64,000 bases of DNA from Escherichia coli (GCF_050920415.1 NZ_CP169309.1), one strand, 5' to 3'; shown: positions 3,088 through 51,413, counted from the first letter of the stretch. Numbers and translations are program-made. The notes: generated by a model not told the origin, from the sequence alone.

Positions 3088-3734
3088 TACTCGTCCTTCA
3101 CATTTCCCGGAATAATTGCGGTTTTCTCTTGTTCACGGCGATACCAGTAATAAGCCCCTTTCGAAATCATTCGCAGTTGCAGTACCAGTCGCTCTTCTAA
3201 TTGCCGACGTTGTTCGACGCCGACGTCCAACGCCTCGGCACCCGCACTGAAGACAATCGTCACCATGGCTTCGGCTTGCGCTTCAGTAAACGCACGCGGC
3301 ATATGGTTTTCGAGTTCCAGATAGTCCGCAAGTTCCGCAATGAAGTGCTGAATTTCACGCGCAACGGCGGCACGAAACGCAGCGGAGGTGCCGGAGCGTT
3401 CCCGCAATAATAACCGGAAGGCGTTAGGATTATTACCGATGAACTCCATAAATGTGGAGACCGAGGTGCGGATCACACTCCCACCTTTGGCGATACGCTG
3501 ACGCGCCTGGCGCATGAGTTGGCGCAGCATTAAACCGCTCTCATCAACCATGGTCAGACCGAGTTCGTCTACGTCGCGAAAATGCCGATAAAAAGAGGTG
3601 GGAGCAATGCCCGCTTCACGCGCCACTTCACGCAAACTCAGGCTGGCGAAGCTGCGTTCAGCACTTAATTGGCTAAATGCGGCTTCCACCAACGAACGGC
3701 GGGTTTTTTCTTTTTGTTGCGCTCTTACGCCCAT
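3087..3734 (-). CDS. fabR: TetR-family repressor of unsaturated fatty acid biosynthesis FabR
   Basis: ORF track gives 3087..3830; the conserved N-terminus [19 protein letters not shown] (TetR HTH) begins at 3734. An alternative annotated start, MFILWYSAS, would be at 3791. Confidence 0.9.
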
Positions 3735-4068
3735 CACGATGTCTGAATCCTTGCCAAAAGTACTGCTGGCACTATACCAGAGAATGAACATACTGGATTG
3801 CTCCAGTGTTGTGAATGAACCGTAACGCAATAAAACATATTTACTGCAATTCTTTGGCCGGTTCTTTTACGAACATCGGAAACCTGCCGCTTAAACGGTG
3901 AGTATTGGCGATAAAAATCCAATAAAACGTTCAAGGCAAAAGTAAGAAACAGACAAAGCAAAGGCCGCTCACGATATAGCCAGATAAATGACGGGGATCA
4001 ATTGGCTTACCCGCGATAAAATGTTACCATTCTGTTGCTTTTATGTATAAGAACAGGTAAGCCCTACC

Positions 4069-34988: not shown

Positions 34989-35204
34989 GAAGGAAAAGCT
35001 GAAGGGCGTCAACCGAAAAATGACCAATGATGGTGAGGAAAAATCAGGGAAGATGAAAAAAATTCATCTTAATTAGAGGTAATAAATAGATTTCTTTATA
35101 GCGCAATCAACCTCACTCGTTTTGACTGATATACAGGCAACACAACGGCACCTGTTTCTCATTCGAAAAACAACGCCCTGCCACCAGATGGTGATGCTAA
35201 AGCA

Positions 35205-35294: not shown

Positions 35295-36850
35295 TTATTT
35301 AATATCTTTCACGCGCATACCGTTGATCTGTTCATCCGTGATGGTATTACCCGCTTTAAAGTAATCAACCACCGCGTGATAAACGTAATAACCGCCCGTC
35401 GTATTGCGCGCTTTACCCTCGGTAAACGCGGTAAAACCATCTCCACCATCAGCAAGGAAACTCTGAGTGGCAATGTGGTAAACCGTCGCATCTTCAATCG
35501 GTTTGCCATTCAAAGTCAGTGAGATAACCCGCTGACCAACCGGCTTGCTGCTGTCGTACTTCATTTCCAGGCCTTTCGATACCTGTAAAACGCCATTACT
35601 TAAACTTGCGCCGTGTTCCATCAAACTGCGTAATTGTTTACCCGTGAGATCCATCGTCACCAGTTCGTTGGGGAACGGGAAGGTACTGATGACGCCACCC
35701 ATCGTAATTGCACCCGCCGGGATCTCATTGCGAATCCCGCCAGAGTTGGTTAACGCCAACTGGGTATTTTTACCCGCCGCTGCCAGCAAAGCGTCCGCCG
35801 CCAGGTTCCCGAGGGAAGCCGATTCACCATAGGCACGTTTTAATTCAACCGGCGATTGCGCCACCGTTTGCTGACTTCATCCAGCTTTTTGTTCCAACTA
35901 TCAATCACCTGTTTCGTTTGCGGATCGGGCTTCCACTCATCGGCGTAAAGGGTTTTAAGCTCGAAGTTTTTCACCGTAAAAGTGTGCGGCTTCTCTTTGT
36001 AGTCGAGAACCAGTTTACCCACATCAATCCCGCCGCTGTCAGTGGAGAGGATTAACGTATTGCCGACTTTAATCGGTTCCGGCGTACCCACATGTGCATG
36101 CCCGGTGATCAAAATATCCAGCCCTTTCACCTGACTTGCCGTCTGAATATCTTTATCCAGCGCGCGACGCACATCTGTGCCTCCCATACTGGACTGGCGG
36201 GCCGGAACACCTTCGTGGATCAGGGCAACGGTCAAATCAACCTTGCCTTTGAGTTCATCGATATAACGTTGTAGCCATTTAATTTCATCACGCGCCTCAA
36301 TACCCACTCGCGTTGCCGCAGATACCGTATCATTAAAGGCAAATACACCGTGCAAACCAATCACGCCAATTTTCACGCCGTCTTTTTCAATGATGGTATA
36401 GGGCTTATCCCAGAATGATTTACTGCTGTTCTGATAAAAAACATTACCCTGCACAATCGGGAATTTTGCCTGACTCAGCTGTAATAACGTATTGTCCCAG
36501 CCGTGATCAAATTCATGATTACCTATAGTGACCGCATCGAACGGCATGGTATTCATAATATCGATAATCGCCTTGCCTTTAGTCAGGCTGCTGATATACG
36601 GCCCGGTAAAATAGTCACCCGCATCAAAAAACCAGGTCGCTTTGTTTTTAGCTTTTTCTTGTTTAACAAGCGTAGTGATATTTGCCCAGCCGCCAATATC
36701 TCGTTTACCGTCAGCAATCCACGGCACTTTATAAGGCTCTACATGTGCATGGAGGTCGTTGGTATAAATGATGGTGACATCTTTGGCGCAAGCCCAAAAC
36801 GGCAGTGTTAATGCGATACCCGCAGCAAGCATTTTAATTTTCATAAACAA
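35295..36850 (-). pseudogene. Frameshifted periplasmic 5'-nucleotidase/metallophosphatase paralog (UshA/CpdB-type two-domain enzyme)
   Basis: ORF 35840..36850 (336 aa, signal peptide MFMKIKMLAAGIALTLPFWA; metallophosphatase motifs NDLHAH, DAGDYF, GNHEFD, GHAH) is followed in another frame by ORF 35295..35864 (189 aa, nucleotidase C-terminal domain). The two parts align end-to-end with the intact downstream paralog, so a single frameshift near 35860-35875 splits one gene. Confidence 0.75.
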
Positions 36851-36903
36851 TCCCTTCCAGTGAGATAAAGGATTGCTACATTACGTTCTGAAAGGCTTTT
36901 TTA

Positions 36904-36919
36904 TGTGAGAATACTCACA
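36904..36919. promoter_or_regulatory. CRP-type palindrome (TGTGA-N6-TCACA) in the divergent promoter region
   Basis: tgtgagaatactcaca is a perfect match to both CRP half-sites with a 6 bp spacer, lying between the nucleotidase pseudogene start (36850) and the Cys-rich ORF start (36977). Confidence 0.55.
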
Positions 36920-36976
36920 TCCAGAGGCGATAACTGTAGGACAAAATCAACGACCTTATGAAATCGTTGGTGATAT

Positions 36977-38104
36977 ATGTCAAATCTGTTTGCGATTAAT
37001 GTCTGTAAAACGTTCGGTTGTCGAAATTTGGGATTGGCCTCATCGGAAGATTACAGTTGGCCAGACTATAAACTGGGTTTTCCGGCACTACACTGCCAGG
37101 CATGCGGAAGTTACCCCCCTTTGTTTGATGAACAACAATTTCGTGACTGGTTGTCAGTTCACATGACTACGTGTGCCATAGAAACAGGGCATTTTTGTCC
37201 ATCATGCTATTGTAAAGAAAAGATTTTTTATGGCCACAACCCGCAGGGAACACAACGCGTTCAATGCCGTTCATGCAAAAAAGTCTGGACTCCGAAACAG
37301 CAGCCAGCAAGAGAAATTACGTATCCCCAGTCCATTGAAACCGTTCAACTGTTCATGCCCTTTCAAGGAGCCAGCGCACTACAAAAGCTCTATGTTTTAG
37401 TCAGTCTTGACGCCACTCGTGGCAACATCCTTCATCTCTCCACGAATTATACGCAACATCAGACAGGAGACAGTCTGCGGTACAGTTACAGAGGCAATAC
37501 AGAACCAACTGAGCACCATAGCGATATTGTGCAGAGGGTAGATATGCGTGAAGCGCAATTCTTGCGCCGGAGCCAGTTCGATGAAATTCAGTATGGCAGT
37601 GCTGTGCTCAAGCGCAATGGCAAGGGAGCCATACTACGCCCGGTTATCACGGCACACGGGCATTTCAGAATACTGAAAATCCGCTTTCCACATGTCAAAA
37701 CGCATATCATTTCACACGAATGTTTTCTGAGAGGCGCAATTATTACAGCCTGGGCAGATCAGTTCCGCCAACAACAAGGCGAACTTTGGTTCGTAGAAGA
37801 AGAAATCAGCGACCGTAACGCTGATATTCCCTGGCATTTTCAGGGAACGACATACCATGGTTGGTGGCAAAATCAGTGGCAACGCTGGGGGCAGGGGAAT
37901 AACAGCAAGATGGTCTGCCTGCTCACAGGAGTCTCCTTAGAAAGGGGCGCAAATGTTTCTCTGGCAACCAGTCGTTGCTTTATCACATGGCTGACAGACC
38001 AACACGACTTTACCCAAAGCGCGTTATTATCCGCAGGTCGCGTAACGAAAATGCTGACCTCACTGGCGTTAAAATACAATGAATCGCTCAATCCATCTTG
38101 TTAG
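36977..38104 (+). CDS. Hypothetical cysteine-rich protein with an IS1 InsA-like N-terminal zinc ribbon
   Basis: 375 aa. N-terminal 100 aa carry CxxxxC, CxxC, CxxC and CxxC motifs (CKTFGC, CQAC, CPSC, CRSC); the stretch CPSC..RVQCRSCKKVW resembles the IS1 InsA zinc finger CPSC..RYLCSHCRKTW as I recall it. No recognisable DDE or HTH motif seen by eye in the remaining 270 aa. Flanked by AT-rich DNA. Confidence 0.6.
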   Translation: MSNLFAINVCKTFGCRNLGLASSEDYSWPDYKLGFPALHCQACGSYPPLFDEQQFRDWLSVHMTTCAIETGHFCPSCYCKEKIFYGHNPQGTQRVQCRSCKKVWTPKQQPAREITYPQSIETVQLFMPFQGASALQKLYVLVSLDATRGNILHLSTNYTQHQTGDSLRYSYRGNTEPTEHHSDIVQRVDMREAQFLRRSQFDEIQYGSAVLKRNGKGAILRPVITAHGHFRILKIRFPHVKTHIISHECFLRGAIITAWADQFRQQQGELWFVEEEISDRNADIPWHFQGTTYHGWWQNQWQRWGQGNNSKMVCLLTGVSLERGANVSLATSRCFITWLTDQHDFTQSALLSAGRVTKMLTSLALKYNESLNPSC

Positions 38105-38333
38105 TCAATACACTCGACAAACGACCATAAATTAATGGGATCACTATTTCTCATTTAATTAAATATATGAATGTATGACTGAAAAATATAATCACAGTCA
38201 ATGTTTAATTAATAACATTATTTGTTACTAAGATCACATAATACTTTCCTGACCTATGCTTACATAAAAATAAGACACGGAGTTCCTTTTATTTAAATAA
38301 TTCAACCAATGTAACAACCCCTATCAAGGAGGG

Positions 38334-39887
38334 ATGATGAGAACTGTATTTACGACTTTATCAGTCATATTCAGCGTGATGTTTTCTCACAGTATACTAG
38401 CTCAGGACGTTACTATTTATTATACGAATGATATTCACGCACATGTCAATCCGGCAAAAATTCCCGCTGTTGATAAGAACAGACTTGTAGGTGGTATGGC
38501 TAATATCGCAGGCATCGTTAATGAAGCGAAGAAAAAAAACAAAGATGTCTTTTTCTTTGATGCAGGCGACTATTTTACCGGTCCGTATATCAGTACCCTG
38601 ACCAAAGGTGAAGCTATTATTGATATCATGAACACCATGCCCTTTGATGCGGTGTCCGTTGGTAATCACGAGTTCGATCACGGCGTGCCCAATATGGTAT
38701 CTCAGTTATCAAAAGCAAAATTCCCCATTCTGCTGGGAAATATTTACTACACCGATACAAATAAACCAGTTTGGGATCATCCGTGGACCATTATCGAAAA
38801 AGATGGTTTAAAGATTGGTGTGATTGGATTGCATGGTGCATTCGCTTTCTATGATACAGTCGCGGCAAAAGCACGTGAAGGCGTAGAAGCCAGAGACGAA
38901 ATTAAATATTTAAATAAAGCACTTGCAGAATTAAAAGGTAAAGTCGACATTACCGTTTTGCTAATTCACGAAGGTGTTCCGGCGCGTCAATCAAGCTTTG
39001 GTAGTAAAGATGTGGAGCGGCTACTACAGGCAGATATTGAGACAGCTAAAAAAGTGAATGGTGTTGATGTCTTAATTACCGGTCACGCACATGTCGGAAC
39101 ACCGCAACCAATAAAAGTTAATAACACATTAATTGTATCTACCGATGCATACGGCACCGACATCGGAAAACTTGTGCTTGATTACAATCCGAAAACAAAG
39201 AAAATTGATAGTTATAATGGTGAGTTAATCACCATCTTTGCAGATCAATTTAAACCTGACACCATCGTTCAAAATACTATCGATAAATGGAGCGTAAAAC
39301 TTAACAAAATAACACAGGAAGTTGTCGGCCATTCTCCCGTAGTTTTAACACGTGAGTATGGCAGTTCTTCTTCTACCGGTAACCTTATTCTGGATGCAAT
39401 GATGGAAAAAACACCTGATGCCATTGCCGGATTTCAAAATAGCGGTGGGATGCGAGCTGATTTTCCTAAAGGTGATATCACACTGGGAGATGTTATTAGC
39501 ACATTCCCCTTTAATAATGACCTCATCGAGATGGATTTGACGGGCCGCGATCTCAAATCGTTGATGACGCATGCAACCAATCTAACTAACGGTGTGTTAC
39601 AGGTTTCAAAAAGCGTTGCGGTTGTCTATGACAGCAAAAAACCACTCAACCAACGGTTAATCTCTTTCACCATTAACGGCAAACCCGTGGAAGATAATCA
39701 AACATATCGTATTGCCACGCACTCCTTTTGTGCCAGTGGTGGTGACGGTTTTGAAGCATTTTTGAATGGAAAAAATGTGAAGACGATACCGGGAACAACC
39801 TCGGCGGAATCAATCATCGATTATTTCAAAAATCATAAACCTGTCACCCCAGACTTAACTAAACGAGTCATGGACGTCGCCAAATAA
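38334..39887 (+). CDS. Periplasmic 5'-nucleotidase/metallophosphatase (UshA/CpdB family), paralog B
   Basis: 517 aa; signal peptide MMRTVFTTLSVIFSVMFSHSILA; all metallophosphatase motifs present (NDIHAH, DAGDYF, GNHEFD, GHAH) plus a C-terminal nucleotidase domain. Strong RBS aggaggg; the start may be the second ATG at 38337. Confidence 0.8.
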   Translation: MMRTVFTTLSVIFSVMFSHSILAQDVTIYYTNDIHAHVNPAKIPAVDKNRLVGGMANIAGIVNEAKKKNKDVFFFDAGDYFTGPYISTLTKGEAIIDIMNTMPFDAVSVGNHEFDHGVPNMVSQLSKAKFPILLGNIYYTDTNKPVWDHPWTIIEKDGLKIGVIGLHGAFAFYDTVAAKAREGVEARDEIKYLNKALAELKGKVDITVLLIHEGVPARQSSFGSKDVERLLQADIETAKKVNGVDVLITGHAHVGTPQPIKVNNTLIVSTDAYGTDIGKLVLDYNPKTKKIDSYNGELITIFADQFKPDTIVQNTIDKWSVKLNKITQEVVGHSPVVLTREYGSSSSTGNLILDAMMEKTPDAIAGFQNSGGMRADFPKGDITLGDVISTFPFNNDLIEMDLTGRDLKSLMTHATNLTNGVLQVSKSVAVVYDSKKPLNQRLISFTINGKPVEDNQTYRIATHSFCASGGDGFEAFLNGKNVKTIPGTTSAESIIDYFKNHKPVTPDLTKRVMDVAK

Positions 39888-39921: not shown

Positions 39922-41547
39922 ATGCGAATGAAAACAGTGCAGCGTACTTTACTTGCCGCAACATTGCTGACTATTTTTTCGGTCTCAGTCATGGCGCAGG
40001 ATGGCACGATTATTTATACAAATGATCTTCACACTCATGTGGATTCTTATAAAGTGCCGTATATCGCAGACGGAAAACGCGACATTGGCGGCTTTGCCAA
40101 TATATCTACTTTAGTAAAACAAGAGAAAGCGAAAAATAAAGCCACCTTTTATTTTGATGCTGGAGACTATTTCACCGGCCCTTATATCAGCAGTCTGACA
40201 AAGGGCGAAGCAATAATTGACATTATGAATACCATGCCTTTTGACGCAGTATCAATCGGCAATCATGAGTTTGACCATGGCTGGGATAATGCCCTGCGAC
40301 AATTAAGCAAAGCGAATTTTCCTGTTTTATTGGGCAATGTTTATCATAAAGAGAGTGAGAAACCCTTCTGGAACAAGCCCTACACCATCCTGGAAAAAGA
40401 TGGCATCAAGATTGGTATTATTGGGCTACACGGCGTATTTGCATTTAATGATACGGTCTCGGAGCTCTCTCTCCAGGGACTCGATAATGACAATAATAAC
40501 CGCTTTGATAAATCTTCCGAGACCCTTAAGAATCAGGGGATTGAAGCACGTGATGAAGTGAAGTATTTGCAGCATTATATCGACGAGTTACGTGATAAGG
40601 TTGACCTCACTGTGGCGCTGGTTCATGAAGGCGTTCCGGCGCGTCAGTCCAGCATTGGCAATACAGATGTTAGACGCGCTCTTGATAAAGATATTCAAAC
40701 CGCTAGCAAGGTGAAAGGATTGGATATTCTGATTACCGGGCATGCCCACGTCGGAACGCCAGAACCAATCAAAGTCGGCAACACCTTAATCCTTTCGACT
40801 GATAGTGGCGGTATCGATATTGGTAAATTAGTCCTTGATGTCAACCCTACAGCTCGTACCCATAAAATGAAGAGCTTTGAGCTGAAAACAGTTTATGCCG
40901 ATGAATGGATACCCGATCCAACGACACAAAAAGTTATCAATGGCTGGAATAAAAAACTGGCGGATATTGTACGCCAACCAGTGGGTGAATCATCGATTGT
41001 ATTAACTCGCGCCTATGGTGAGTCATCGCAACTAGGCAACCTGTTTACCGATGCAATGCTTGTCGCTGCTCCGACTGCACAGATTGCATTGATAAACTCC
41101 GGCAGCTTACGTGCGGATATAAATGCAGGCACGATTACCTTTGGCGACATTACCAGTACATTCCCCTTCAAGAATGAACTTACTGAAATGGATCTCAGCG
41201 GTAAGGATCTGCGTAACCTACTGGAACACGGGGCATCGCTTACCAATGGCATCCTGCAAATGTCAAAAGGCGCAGAAATGCGCTATACCCCGCAGAAACC
41301 AGTAGGTCAGCGCATAGTATCTTTTAAAATTAATGGTGAAGAGATCGTTGATACGAATATTTACCATGTTGCAACAACGACTTTCCTTGCACTGGGGGGC
41401 GATGGTTTTCTGGCATTCAAAGAAGGGAAAAATGTTCAGGTCCGCGCCAGAAATAACATGTCCGATGTCGTGATCGATTATTTGAAGAAAGGCCACAAGA
41501 TTACGCCTGCACAGGTAAATGAAATGCGGGTGGACGTTAGCAAATAA
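39922..41547 (+). CDS. Periplasmic 5'-nucleotidase/metallophosphatase (UshA/CpdB family), paralog C
   Basis: 541 aa; signal peptide MRMKTVQRTLLAATLLTIFSVSVMA; metallophosphatase motifs intact. The N-terminal domain is about 80-85% identical to the frameshifted paralog and carries an extra N/D-rich segment of about 25 aa. Confidence 0.8.
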   Translation: MRMKTVQRTLLAATLLTIFSVSVMAQDGTIIYTNDLHTHVDSYKVPYIADGKRDIGGFANISTLVKQEKAKNKATFYFDAGDYFTGPYISSLTKGEAIIDIMNTMPFDAVSIGNHEFDHGWDNALRQLSKANFPVLLGNVYHKESEKPFWNKPYTILEKDGIKIGIIGLHGVFAFNDTVSELSLQGLDNDNNNRFDKSSETLKNQGIEARDEVKYLQHYIDELRDKVDLTVALVHEGVPARQSSIGNTDVRRALDKDIQTASKVKGLDILITGHAHVGTPEPIKVGNTLILSTDSGGIDIGKLVLDVNPTARTHKMKSFELKTVYADEWIPDPTTQKVINGWNKKLADIVRQPVGESSIVLTRAYGESSQLGNLFTDAMLVAAPTAQIALINSGSLRADINAGTITFGDITSTFPFKNELTEMDLSGKDLRNLLEHGASLTNGILQMSKGAEMRYTPQKPVGQRIVSFKINGEEIVDTNIYHVATTTFLALGGDGFLAFKEGKNVQVRARNNMSDVVIDYLKKGHKITPAQVNEMRVDVSK

Positions 41548-41558
41548 TAAAAAATTAT

Positions 41559-41594
41559 AATGCCATTCATTCACTGAATGGCATTATTTTTCTC
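41559..41594 (+). terminator. Intrinsic terminator after nucleotidase paralog C
   Basis: aatgccattca ttcac tgaatggcatt followed by a T-rich run. Confidence 0.6.
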
Positions 41595-41624
41595 TAAATC
41601 AACAATAAATAATGAGATATATTT

Positions 41625-42485
41625 ATGTGTATAAAAAAGCACGGGATAGCTTTATCGATTCTATTAATACCTTGCATTGGAAACGCTCAGGAAATTAAAA
41701 GTGAGGAAGGCTGGTTACATCAAAGCTTGAATGTCATTGGTCGCACAGACTCTCGCTTTGGCCCAAGGCTGACTAACGACCTCTACCCTGAATATACTGT
41801 AGCAGGAAGAAAAGACTGGTTTGATTTTTATGGTTATGTTGATCTACCAAAATTCTTTGGCGTCGGCAGTCACTATGATGTTGGGATCTGGGATGAGGGC
41901 TCACCACTATTTACGGAAATAGAACCTCGGTTTTCCATTGACAAATTGACCGGATTAAATCTTGCGTTCGGCCCTTTTAAAGAATGGTTCATTGCAAACA
42001 ACTATGTCTATGATATGGGTGACAACCAGTCATCCCGGCAAAGTACATGGTATATGGGGCTTGGTACAGATATCGACACGGGTCTACCAATTAAGCTTTC
42101 TGCCAATATATACACCAAGTATCAGTGGCAAAACTATGGTGCCGCTAATGAAAATGAATGGGACGGATATCGATTCAAAATAAAATATAGCATTCCTCTT
42201 ACCCATTTATTCGGAGGGCGATTGGTATACAATAGTTTTACTAACTTTGATTTTGGCTCCGATCTTGCGGACAAATCACACAATAATAAACGAACCAGTA
42301 ATGCTATTGCTTCAAGCCATATCCTTTCCCTGCTATATGAACACTGGAAATTTGCATTTACACTACGTTATTTTCACAACGGTGGACAATGGAATGCTGG
42401 GGAGAAAGTTAACTTCGGAGATGGTCCATTTGAATTAAAAAACACAGGATGGGGAACCTATACTACTATTGGTTATCAATTTTAA
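41625..42485 (+). CDS. Tsx-family nucleoside-specific outer membrane channel paralog
   Basis: 286 aa; aligns along its whole length with E. coli Tsx as I recall it (e.g. [63 protein letters not shown]). Signal peptide present. Confidence 0.8.
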
Positions 42486-50232: not shown

Positions 50233-50387
50233 TGCGCAAACGATGCGAGGCGGATCGAAAAATTCAATATTCATCACACTTTTCATGAAAATTCTGTAAC
50301 CGTTTTCACGCGCTATCTGCTAAAAATGTTGCCGATGTGAAGTAAACATGGAAGTAGTACGCCTGCCGTGCCGGGCGAGGAGTGAGT

Positions 50388-51413
50388 GTGAAAGCGAAGA
50401 AGCAGGAAACTGCCGCGACCATGAAAGACGTTGCCCTGAAGGCAAAAGTCTCTACAGCGACCGTCTCCCGAGCATTAATGAATCCCGATAAAGTCTCCCA
50501 GGCCACCCGTAATCGGGTTGAAAAAGCGGCCCGGGAAGTAGGTTATTTGCCGCAGCCTATGGGGCGCAACGTCAAACGTAATGAATCCCGCACCATTCTG
50601 GTGATTGTCCCGGATATCTGCGATCCCTTCTTTAGCGAAATTATTCGCGGTATCGAAGTTACGGCGGCAAATCACGGATATCTGGTGCTGATTGGCGACT
50701 GTGCGCATCAAAATCAGCAGGAAAAAACCTTTATCGATTTGATTATCACCAAGCAAATTGATGGCATGTTGCTGCTGGGTTCAAGGCTGCCGTTTGATGC
50801 CAGCATTGAGGAACAGCGTAATCTGCCGCCGATGGTGATGGCGAACGAATTTGCGCCGGAACTGGAGCTGCCTACAGTTCATATCGACAATCTGACCGCG
50901 GCATTTGATGCAGTAAATTATTTATATGAGCAAGGTCATAAACGGATTGGCTGTATAGCCGGTCCCGAAGAGATGCCGCTGTGTCACTACCGCCTGCAAG
51001 GCTACGTTCAGGCGCTGCGTCGCTGCGGCATTATGGTTGATCCGCAATACATCGCCCGGGGCGACTTCTCCTTTGAAGCCGGAAGCAACGCGATGCAACA
51101 GCTGCTTGCTCTTCCGCAACCGCCTACTGCTGTCTTCTGCCATAGCGATGTAATGGCGCTCGGCGCACTTTCTCAGGCAAAACGCCAGGGGCTGAAAGTC
51201 CCGGATGATCTATCCATAATCGGTTTTGATAACATCGACCTGACGCAATTTTGTGATCCGCCGCTGACAACCATCGCGCAGCCGCGTTACGAAATCGGTC
51301 GGGAAGCTATGCTGTTATTGCTTGATCAAATGCAGGGGCAACACGTTGGCAGTGGCTCTCGTTTAATGGACTGCGAACTTATCATCCGGGGATCAACACG
51401 CGCGTTACCTTAA
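50388..51413 (+). CDS. cytR: LacI-family repressor CytR (nucleoside catabolism/transport regulon)
   Basis: MKAKKQETAATMKDVALKAKVSTATVSRALMNPDKVS...; GTG start inferred from the conserved N-terminus. Confidence 0.93.
   Translation: MKAKKQETAATMKDVALKAKVSTATVSRALMNPDKVSQATRNRVEKAAREVGYLPQPMGRNVKRNESRTILVIVPDICDPFFSEIIRGIEVTAANHGYLVLIGDCAHQNQQEKTFIDLIITKQIDGMLLLGSRLPFDASIEEQRNLPPMVMANEFAPELELPTVHIDNLTAAFDAVNYLYEQGHKRIGCIAGPEEMPLCHYRLQGYVQALRRCGIMVDPQYIARGDFSFEAGSNAMQQLLALPQPPTAVFCHSDVMALGALSQAKRQGLKVPDDLSIIGFDNIDLTQFCDPPLTTIAQPRYEIGREAMLLLLDQMQGQHVGSGSRLMDCELIIRGSTRALP

Follow-up and report, generated by a model that had tools for sequence, protein, structure and literature searches.

A perfect CRP-type palindrome between a divergent 5'-nucleotidase gene and a Cys-rich ORF in the metF-metL interval of Escherichia coli

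Does a perfect CRP-type palindrome in the short gap between two divergent genes of a patchily distributed E. coli locus act as a CRP operator, and does it place these genes under the same control as the nucleoside genes, as had been proposed from the sequence alone? The palindrome, TGTGAGAATACTCACA, lies at 36904-36919 of the window (the whole stretch of 64,000 nucleotides analysed) and consists of TGTGA and TCACA around the 6-bp spacer GAATAC, matching 10 of 10 CRP core positions; both its place and its match were exactly as originally described. The 22-bp site extends over 36901-36922 (ttaTGTGAgaatacTCACAtcc) and is centred at 36911.5, at most 1 bp off the midpoint of the divergent intergenic region of 132 bp (36845-36976) that separates a nucleotidase pseudogene from a Cys-rich ORF. 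On the minus-strand side, 59 bp separate the palindrome from the nucleotidase start codon (ATG at 36844); on the plus-strand side, 57 bp separate it from that of the Cys-rich ORF (ATG at 36977). These values are approximately the 55 and 60 bp given earlier, and the corresponding distances from the centre are 67.5 and 65.5 bp. This is the only zero-mismatch occurrence of TGTGA-N6-TCACA in the window; dinucleotide shuffles gave a mean of 0.05 perfect sites per window, with at least one such site in 5 of 100 shuffles. Matches with up to two mismatches occur at chance level (27 observed, 26 expected), so that only the perfect site stands out.

The minus-strand gene (Nuc1, 35295-36844) encodes a periplasmic 5'-nucleotidase/metallophosphatase with a signal peptide, MKIKMLAAGIALTLPFWACA, recognized by eye. 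It was correctly read from the sequence as frameshifted in this strain: it is broken into two overlapping ORFs (35295-35864 and 35840-36850), it is annotated as 'frameshifted' in a near-identical genome, and it is intact (517 aa) in E. coli 536. On the plus strand, the Cys-rich ORF (36977-38104) encodes a cytoplasmic protein of 375 aa with N-terminal zinc ribbons and an RNase H-like transposase/integrase fold. Behind it on the same strand lie two periplasmic 5'-nucleotidase paralogues, Nuc2 (38334-39887) and Nuc3 (39922-41547), then a terminator-like hairpin 3' of Nuc3 (41548-41596; AATGCCATTCA...TGAATGGCATT, followed by a T-run), and finally a paralogue of the nucleoside channel Tsx (41625-42485; NF011686, 490 bits). 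With so strong a hairpin in front of it, the tsx paralogue probably needs either its own promoter or read-through. The locus is situated between metF and metL and occupies one place per E. coli genome; among 5426 complete E. coli genomes, 1841 contain its promoter region, with identities of 87-100%. Two forms are distinguished: a long form (658 genomes, including that of the window and E. coli 536), in which the Cys-rich ORF is followed by the two nucleotidase genes, the hairpin and the tsx paralogue, and a short form, found in ST131 and EAEC 042, that consists of the divergent pair alone. Nuc2 and Nuc3 are thus confined to the long form, in its low-GC extension. A comparative paper from 2026 lists the interval in ExPEC as 'GR 31 metL..metF' and proposes a role in nucleoside processing; regulation is unmentioned there (PMC12928451). 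In ST131 (L003 8292-8328) and in a further short-form locus (L004), the Cys-rich ORF and the convergent metL gene overlap at their 3' ends by 37 bp.

Two further gaps of the long form had been named as places for CRP sites, and only one of them holds a candidate. The scan of the AT-rich gap upstream of Nuc2 (38105-38333) returned a single box with one mismatch, TGTTACTAAGATCACA (38223-38238), situated 103.5 bp upstream of the Nuc2 ATG and identical in E. coli 536; this identity is uninformative, since the box sits in a long invariant block and the comparison is among close E. coli relatives. The gap upstream of the tsx paralogue (41548-41624), which holds the terminator hairpin, contains no CRP-like site.

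To follow the palindrome through evolution we scanned one genome per species, which gave 37 loci with the divergent pair, and compared, in one alignment, 35 orthologous intergenic regions representing about 15 genera. Of these 35 regions, 26 have the perfect core, among which the spacer takes 13 forms, and 34 have an unaltered TCACA. The mean information content amounts to 1.83 bits in the half-site columns, 0.77 bits in the spacer and 1.30 bits in the remainder of the intergenic region, and when a 5-6-5 mask was slid over 117 registers the contrast between half-sites and spacer was maximal exactly at 36904. The half-sites are therefore constrained and the spacer is free, as in a CRP site, except that the first spacer base, G, is conserved as well; a group made up of Enterobacter, Silvania and Pluralibacter has a degenerate left half-site (TGCGA or TGTGC). 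Over its length of about 13 kb, each locus has essentially no perfect box besides this one. Such a pattern of conservation is the signature expected when a dimeric factor recognizes two pentamers spaced by one helical turn, and the palindrome is very probably functional as a regulatory site, if an ordinary one, kept across many enterobacterial genera. Motif and phylogenetic footprint together uphold the original description of a CRP motif in the divergent regulatory region of nucleotide-scavenging genes. Across the same genera the protein identity of the nucleotidase is about 90% and that of the Cys-rich protein 57-74%. None of the nucleotidase orthologues examined lacks a Cys-rich neighbour; the nearest to an exception is Salmonella enterica subsp. 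arizonae (L038 5980-6738), where 126 codons are missing from the start of the Cys-rich ORF, the nucleotidase gene is intact, and the perfect palindrome persists, directly adjoining the deletion junction.

Beyond these orthologues, homologues of the Cys-rich protein at 20-40% identity are nearly always found beside genes for nucleoside or nucleotide scavenging (L041, L044, L047, L050-L052, L057-L059). The partners vary: deoD-tal-deoB and adenosine deaminase in Motilimonas (L041); a porin, an AphA-type acid phosphatase and a class II cyclic-nucleotide phosphodiesterase (L044); nupC with a nucleoside phosphorylase (L047); deoB, a phosphorylase and a NupG-type symporter (L050); a 5'-nucleotidase immediately upstream on the same strand (L051 and L052); and a divergent 5'-nucleotidase in Cronobacter, Atlantibacter and Vibrio. 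Of seven distant regulatory regions, five had a CRP-like box with no more than one mismatch, whereas shuffled sequences (n=5000) did not exceed two of seven. Cronobacter, Atlantibacter and Vibrio have boxes of this kind as well, whose centres lie 67.5-82.5 bp away from the ATG of the nucleotidase gene, and several of the distant boxes have CRP-typical A/T flanks, e.g., AAATGTGACATACATCGCATT and AATGTGATCGCAATCACGAT. In L044, where the intergenic region is long, each of the divergent genes has a CRP-like box of its own. The distant boxes, one per divergent gene in L044, support CRP control of both partners, and the separate boxes there explain why a single central box is found in the compact region of 132 bp. 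Near-perfect PurR-like boxes, CGTAAACGTTTGCGT (L051, ca. 3310-3330) and GCGCAAACGTTCA (L059, ca. 3900-3920), adjoin CRP-like boxes upstream of nucleotidase genes.

The spacing of -10-like hexamers is fixed on both sides of the palindrome. For the Cys-rich ORF the alignment indicates a candidate -10 element CAAAAT (36942-36947, plus strand), starting 30.5 bp from the CRP centre; the hexamer reads CAAAAT, CAGAAT or CAATAT in 34 of the 35 regions, with only Silvania departing, and A at its position 2 and T at its position 6 are near-invariant. For the nucleotidase the candidate is TAATGT (36878-36883, minus strand), with the pattern TAAnnT across genera and starting 28.5 bp from the centre, an assignment that is ambiguous because the same bases on the plus strand (TACATT) also resemble a -10 element. 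Not one insertion or deletion separates the box from the hexamers CAnAAT (plus) and TAAnnT (minus) in the 35 regions, and on the plus side the sequence between box and hexamer is poorly conserved. With the usual distance from -10 element to start, CRP would be centred at about -42.5 on the plus strand and about -40.5 on the minus strand, with leaders of some 23-27 nt; class I positions are excluded since both ATGs are too near to the box. It counts against these promoters that the candidates match only 3 to 4 of the 6 consensus positions, that the minus-strand one is ambiguous and that the spacings of 28.5 and 30.5 bp depart from the canonical 29.5 bp. A simple sigma-70 consensus scan of 36700-37100 returned no promoter either, a result that is also expected of an activator-dependent promoter and is therefore uninformative.

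With moderate confidence, we favour the reading that the palindrome is a genuine and evolutionarily old cAMP-CRP operator common to two back-to-back class II promoters. A single CRP dimer at 36911.5 would lie about 41 bp upstream of each transcription start, in class II geometry; at high cAMP it would activate the Cys-rich ORF together with the nucleotidase gene, here a pseudogene, and the nucleotidase and tsx paralogues further downstream might come under its influence too, by read-through or from the weaker box at 38223. CytR would play no part, and a second, locus-specific regulator, possibly the Cys-rich protein itself, would gate the effect of CRP. The sequences show the motif, its place, its pattern of conservation, the constant distance to -10-like hexamers and the return of CRP boxes at distant homologous loci; that CRP binds, where transcription starts, that the effect is activation and not repression, and that a second regulator takes part are deduced from them.

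The proposed arrangement has relatives among well-known promoters. The deoP2, cdd, udp, tsx-p2 and nupG promoters are CRP-dependent, with a proximal site near -40.5/-41.5. With these proximal sites, and with the class II promoters galP1, melR and synthetic CC(-41.5), the locus shares a box about 29 bp from a -10-like hexamer, the lack of a recognisable -35 element, and targets in carbon or nucleoside scavenging; it differs from them in having one box equidistant between divergent genes, in spacings of 28.5 and 30.5 rather than 29.5 bp, and in a geometry deduced from sequence. One CRP dimer between back-to-back promoters is also found at araC-araBAD and reportedly in the synthetic constructs of El-Robh and Busby (2002), the title of which is said to state that a single CRP target can activate divergent promoters. 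The ara site, however, is distal and acts with AraC, whereas here we have a putative class II arrangement on both sides within 132 bp.

It is rather unlikely, though worth weighing, that CRP binds the box and serves one promoter only, or represses. For instance, the nucleotidase might use a different -10 element (ATAAAW, ca. 36901-36906, minus strand) that overlaps the A-run and a half-site, or a plus-strand promoter might use TACATT at 36877-36882, which would put the box into the leader. In keeping with such variants, the stretch 36877-36883 reads as a -10 element on either strand, an A/T-rich, -10-like hexamer does overlap the left half-site, and CRP is a repressor at some of its EAEC targets. 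The -35 and -10 elements of these alternative promoters are poor, however, and nothing replaces them; moreover, a distance of 65-72 bp from box to ATG recurs at the distant loci, as it should if CRP activates from about -41.5 and the leader is short. An argument in favour of the variants is the inverted repeat CTTTCAG/CTGAAAG, by which the Shine-Dalgarno sequence of the nucleotidase would be sequestered on condition that transcription begins upstream of 36894; the leader hairpin it would form (CUUUCAG/CUGAAAG) was rejected, as it lacks compensatory pairs and reaches only -4.3 kcal/mol. An RNA structure formed by the dyad CAACGA/TCGTTG was likewise discarded, its 3' arm being invariant and covariation absent, and an Rfam search of 36700-37100 gave no match.

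The most direct data on CRP binding come from EAEC 042, a short-form strain with a perfect box, TGTGATTACTCTCACA, at 4605555-4605570 (L055 5555-5570). ChIP-seq of CRP in this strain, grown to mid-log phase in LB, yielded 322 chromosomal peaks with scores down to 13 (PMC12360894). After verifying the coordinate system against the mchA site, we found no peak in the published table within 4,604,000-4,606,999 for this one strain and one condition, so that CRP occupancy was undetectable in EAEC 042 under mid-log LB growth, and the existing ChIP data, which had been named as a check on the site, speak against it there. The same table lists udp (score 19348), deoC (4089), cdd (3901) and tsx (1853) as strong targets, and also cytR (13) (PMC12360894). 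The weight of the negative result is limited because scores correlate poorly with the match to the core: the top-scoring udp site has two mismatches, and target 0225, with the perfect core TGTGAGCCGCATCACA, scores only 111 and gave an EMSA shift and no promoter activity (PMC12360894). Like our site, target 0225 combines a perfect CRP core with a location in accessory DNA between divergent genes (PMC12360894); it differs in that it has a ChIP peak and an EMSA shift, whereas the present site has no ChIP peak and is deeply conserved. Occlusion by another protein, or a different binder, are possible causes of the negative result. The supplements of the CRP ChIP paper on ETEC H10407, a strain that may lack the locus, held no matching site, and we found no expression data for the locus in the literature searched. 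Comparative sequence evidence speaks well for the CRP interpretation, which is contradicted by one ChIP data set.

Should another protein bind the palindrome, which we regard as improbable, the most obvious candidate would be the Cys-rich protein, acting as autoregulator and as regulator of the nucleotidase gene; the resemblance to a CRP site would then be incidental, or CRP would be excluded in vivo. Such a binder would agree with the missing peak at a perfect site in EAEC 042 and with the conserved G at the first spacer position; the Cys-rich family always accompanies the boxes, and its zinc ribbons are of a DNA-binding type on a nucleic-acid-enzyme fold. It has to contend with the precise 5-6-5 dyad of CRP and the CRP-typical A/T flanks at distant loci (AAATGTGACATACATCGCATT and AATGTGATCGCAATCACGAT), with nucleoside scavenging genes being classic CRP targets, and with S. 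arizonae, which keeps the perfect box and the nucleotidase gene despite the loss of 126 codons from its Cys-rich ORF. The poor agreement of ChIP score and core match (111 for a perfect core, 19348 at udp) weighs against it as well.

The intergenic region has conserved blocks other than the CRP half-sites, and they are as conserved as these. One is the near-invariant TTACGTTCTGAAAG (36881-36894), which is neither CRP-like nor CytR-like; the other, AAATCGTTGGT (36961-36971, plus strand), is invariant, lies just upstream of the Cys-rich ORF start and together with 36950-36954 makes up a dyad AACGA-N10-TCGTT that gave the second-highest 5-6-5 conservation contrast. Conserved blocks inside the supposed promoter spacer hint at another factor or at other transcription starts, and the two elements may be operators of a second, locus-specific regulator. 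A sequence similar to the first block, ACGTTCT, is found about 40 bp upstream of deoD in Motilimonas (L041).

The Cys-rich protein itself belongs to a small family (138 clusters at 50% identity). Against Pfam it showed a weak match to the zinc ribbon of IS1 InsA and otherwise no domain, and against PHROGs a weak match to a transposase zinc ribbon only; a PADLOC search for defence systems returned nothing. Its fold is, with high confidence, of the RNase H-like (transposase/integrase) type, and its zinc ribbons resemble those of IS1 InsA; Foldseek matches to Argonaute and SPARDA proteins were set aside as general RNase H/PIWI fold similarity (TM ca. 0.2). The protein thus shares the RNase H-like catalytic fold of the DDE transposases, yet its gene does not behave as an insertion sequence: terminal inverted repeats are absent, there is a single place per E. 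coli genome, and the position is syntenic across genera. It differs from IS1/IS1595-type and other DDE transposases and from retroviral integrases in the same respects, having no terminal inverted repeats and a fixed chromosomal position; compared with DDE transposases, the second residue of the acidic triad is apparently replaced (conserved RPVxxAHxHF, by eye), and nucleoside or nucleotide genes are always found in linkage with it. We tentatively suggest, as a possibility, that the family comprises domesticated transposase-fold zinc-ribbon regulators dedicated to operons for periplasmic nucleotide and nucleoside scavenging in the Gammaproteobacteria, working with CRP at the common promoter as a functional analogue of CytR. 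As such a regulator, the protein would bind the non-CRP blocks, TTACGTTCTGAAAG and AACGA-N10-TCGTT, and its presence would account for the undetected CRP at the perfect box of EAEC 042 in LB. This uncharacterised transposase-fold family tied to nucleoside scavenging is a more novel lead than the CRP site.

As to CytR, the proposal of a CRP/CytR logic like that of the nucleoside genes survives in its CRP half, supported by sequence, and fails in its CytR half for want of operators or a second box. We regard a CRP/CytR nucleoprotein promoter of the deoP2, cdd, udp or tsx-p2 type as very improbable, even though the function is related (nucleotide and nucleoside scavenging), a tsx paralogue lies downstream, and cytR is within the same window. 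The cytR gene (50388-51413, plus strand) is about 13.5 kb away and not 8 kb as had been noted; it lies outside the locus as a core-genome neighbour, next to priA and ftsN as normally in K-12. CytR half-sites are TGCAA/TTGCA repeats, and none were present in 36845-36976, 38105-38333 or 41548-41624, the window mean being 2.3 per kb. Instead of two or more CRP sites flanking a CytR operator, the 132 bp hold one conserved box; the second-best CRP match (36969-36984, two mismatches) spans the start codon of the Cys-rich ORF and is not conserved, and the conserved non-CRP blocks are unlike CytR operators. The locus therefore resembles the E. coli CRP/CytR nucleoside promoters in physiology, in its Tsx-type channel and in a probable logic of CRP plus a specific regulator, and differs from them in the lack of tandem CRP sites and CytR half-sites and in its candidate regulator, an unrelated transposase-fold protein. 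A CRP-like box with two mismatches, TGTAACCGTTTTCACG (50295-50310), is centred 85 bp upstream of the cytR start and is plausibly the known CRP site of the cytR promoter.

That the palindrome arose by chance and has no function is barely credible: the 5% of shuffled windows that hold one perfect site and the missing ChIP peak in EAEC 042 agree with it, and it is effectively refuted by the comparative data, i.e., half-sites kept and spacers free at a fixed position in about 15 genera, with the top contrast of 117 registers, and a box that recurs at distant homologous loci more often than shuffles produce.

The age of the module bears on the further claim that an acquired island had been newly wired into catabolite control, which does not hold. 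The pair of nucleotidase and Cys-rich genes occupies the metF-metL slot also in Citrobacter, Klebsiella, Kosakonia, Phytobacter, Kluyvera, Superficieibacter, Pseudocitrobacter and Salmonella arizonae; the box accompanies the pair in the first seven of these, and the pair has this slot in at least 8 genera other than Escherichia, from which it follows that the box came in as part of an old module instead of being a post-acquisition addition. The locus is patchy in E. coli (1841 of 5426 genomes, 658 with the long form), yet it sits at the same site elsewhere, unlike a recently acquired island. Only the Nuc2-Nuc3-tsx extension looks like a later addition, judging by its composition: its GC content is 38-43%, that of the divergent pair 45-48% and that of the flanks 50-59%, so that the term 'acquired island' fits the extension at best. 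In a search for mobile-element ends around the island, the only inverted repeats were the paralogous nucleotidase genes themselves. Pair and promoter are an old family-level module that is absent from many E. coli, including K-12.

If the favoured reading of a shared CRP operator is confirmed, a conserved accessory operon of periplasmic 5'-nucleotidases and a Tsx-type channel joins the CRP regulon of many Enterobacteriaceae; it is carried by about one third of complete E. coli genomes, including the ExPEC lineages 536 and ST131, and occurs also in Klebsiella and Citrobacter. The site would in addition show, in a natural setting, how two divergent class II promoters can share one CRP dimer. The site itself, as a new CRP operator, is an ordinary regulatory annotation. 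Of more interest are a perfect and deeply conserved CRP core that gives no ChIP signal in the sole strain tested, and a transposase-fold family that is consistently linked to scavenging genes carrying CRP boxes.

A second, paralogous type of locus (L013, L015, L016, L032, L034, L039) was encountered in Enterobacter, some Escherichia and Citrobacter sp. wls619, in which Nuc1 is followed, on its own strand, by additional nucleotidase and/or tsx genes. Copies from Enterobacter and wls619 have a degenerate left half-site (TGCGA or TGTGC), and the perfect box is retained in two copies, both from Escherichia (L016 and L034); no CRP-like sites were found in the internal intergenic regions of the Enterobacter-type loci. 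One of the paralogous loci (L013) lies a few kb from an ICE-type ParB gene, and in three genomes both locus types occur together. The genome closest to that of the window, NZ_CP169399.1, is 100.0% identical over 7.6 kb apart from a single base at position 35157, in a T-run of the gap between metF and the nucleotidase gene, which is the first difference found. In the record of E. coli strain IH5 (NZ_CP168949.1; L005) the match is surrounded by a patchwork of partial tuf, casA, capsid and bla fragments, and this record looks chimeric or misassembled.
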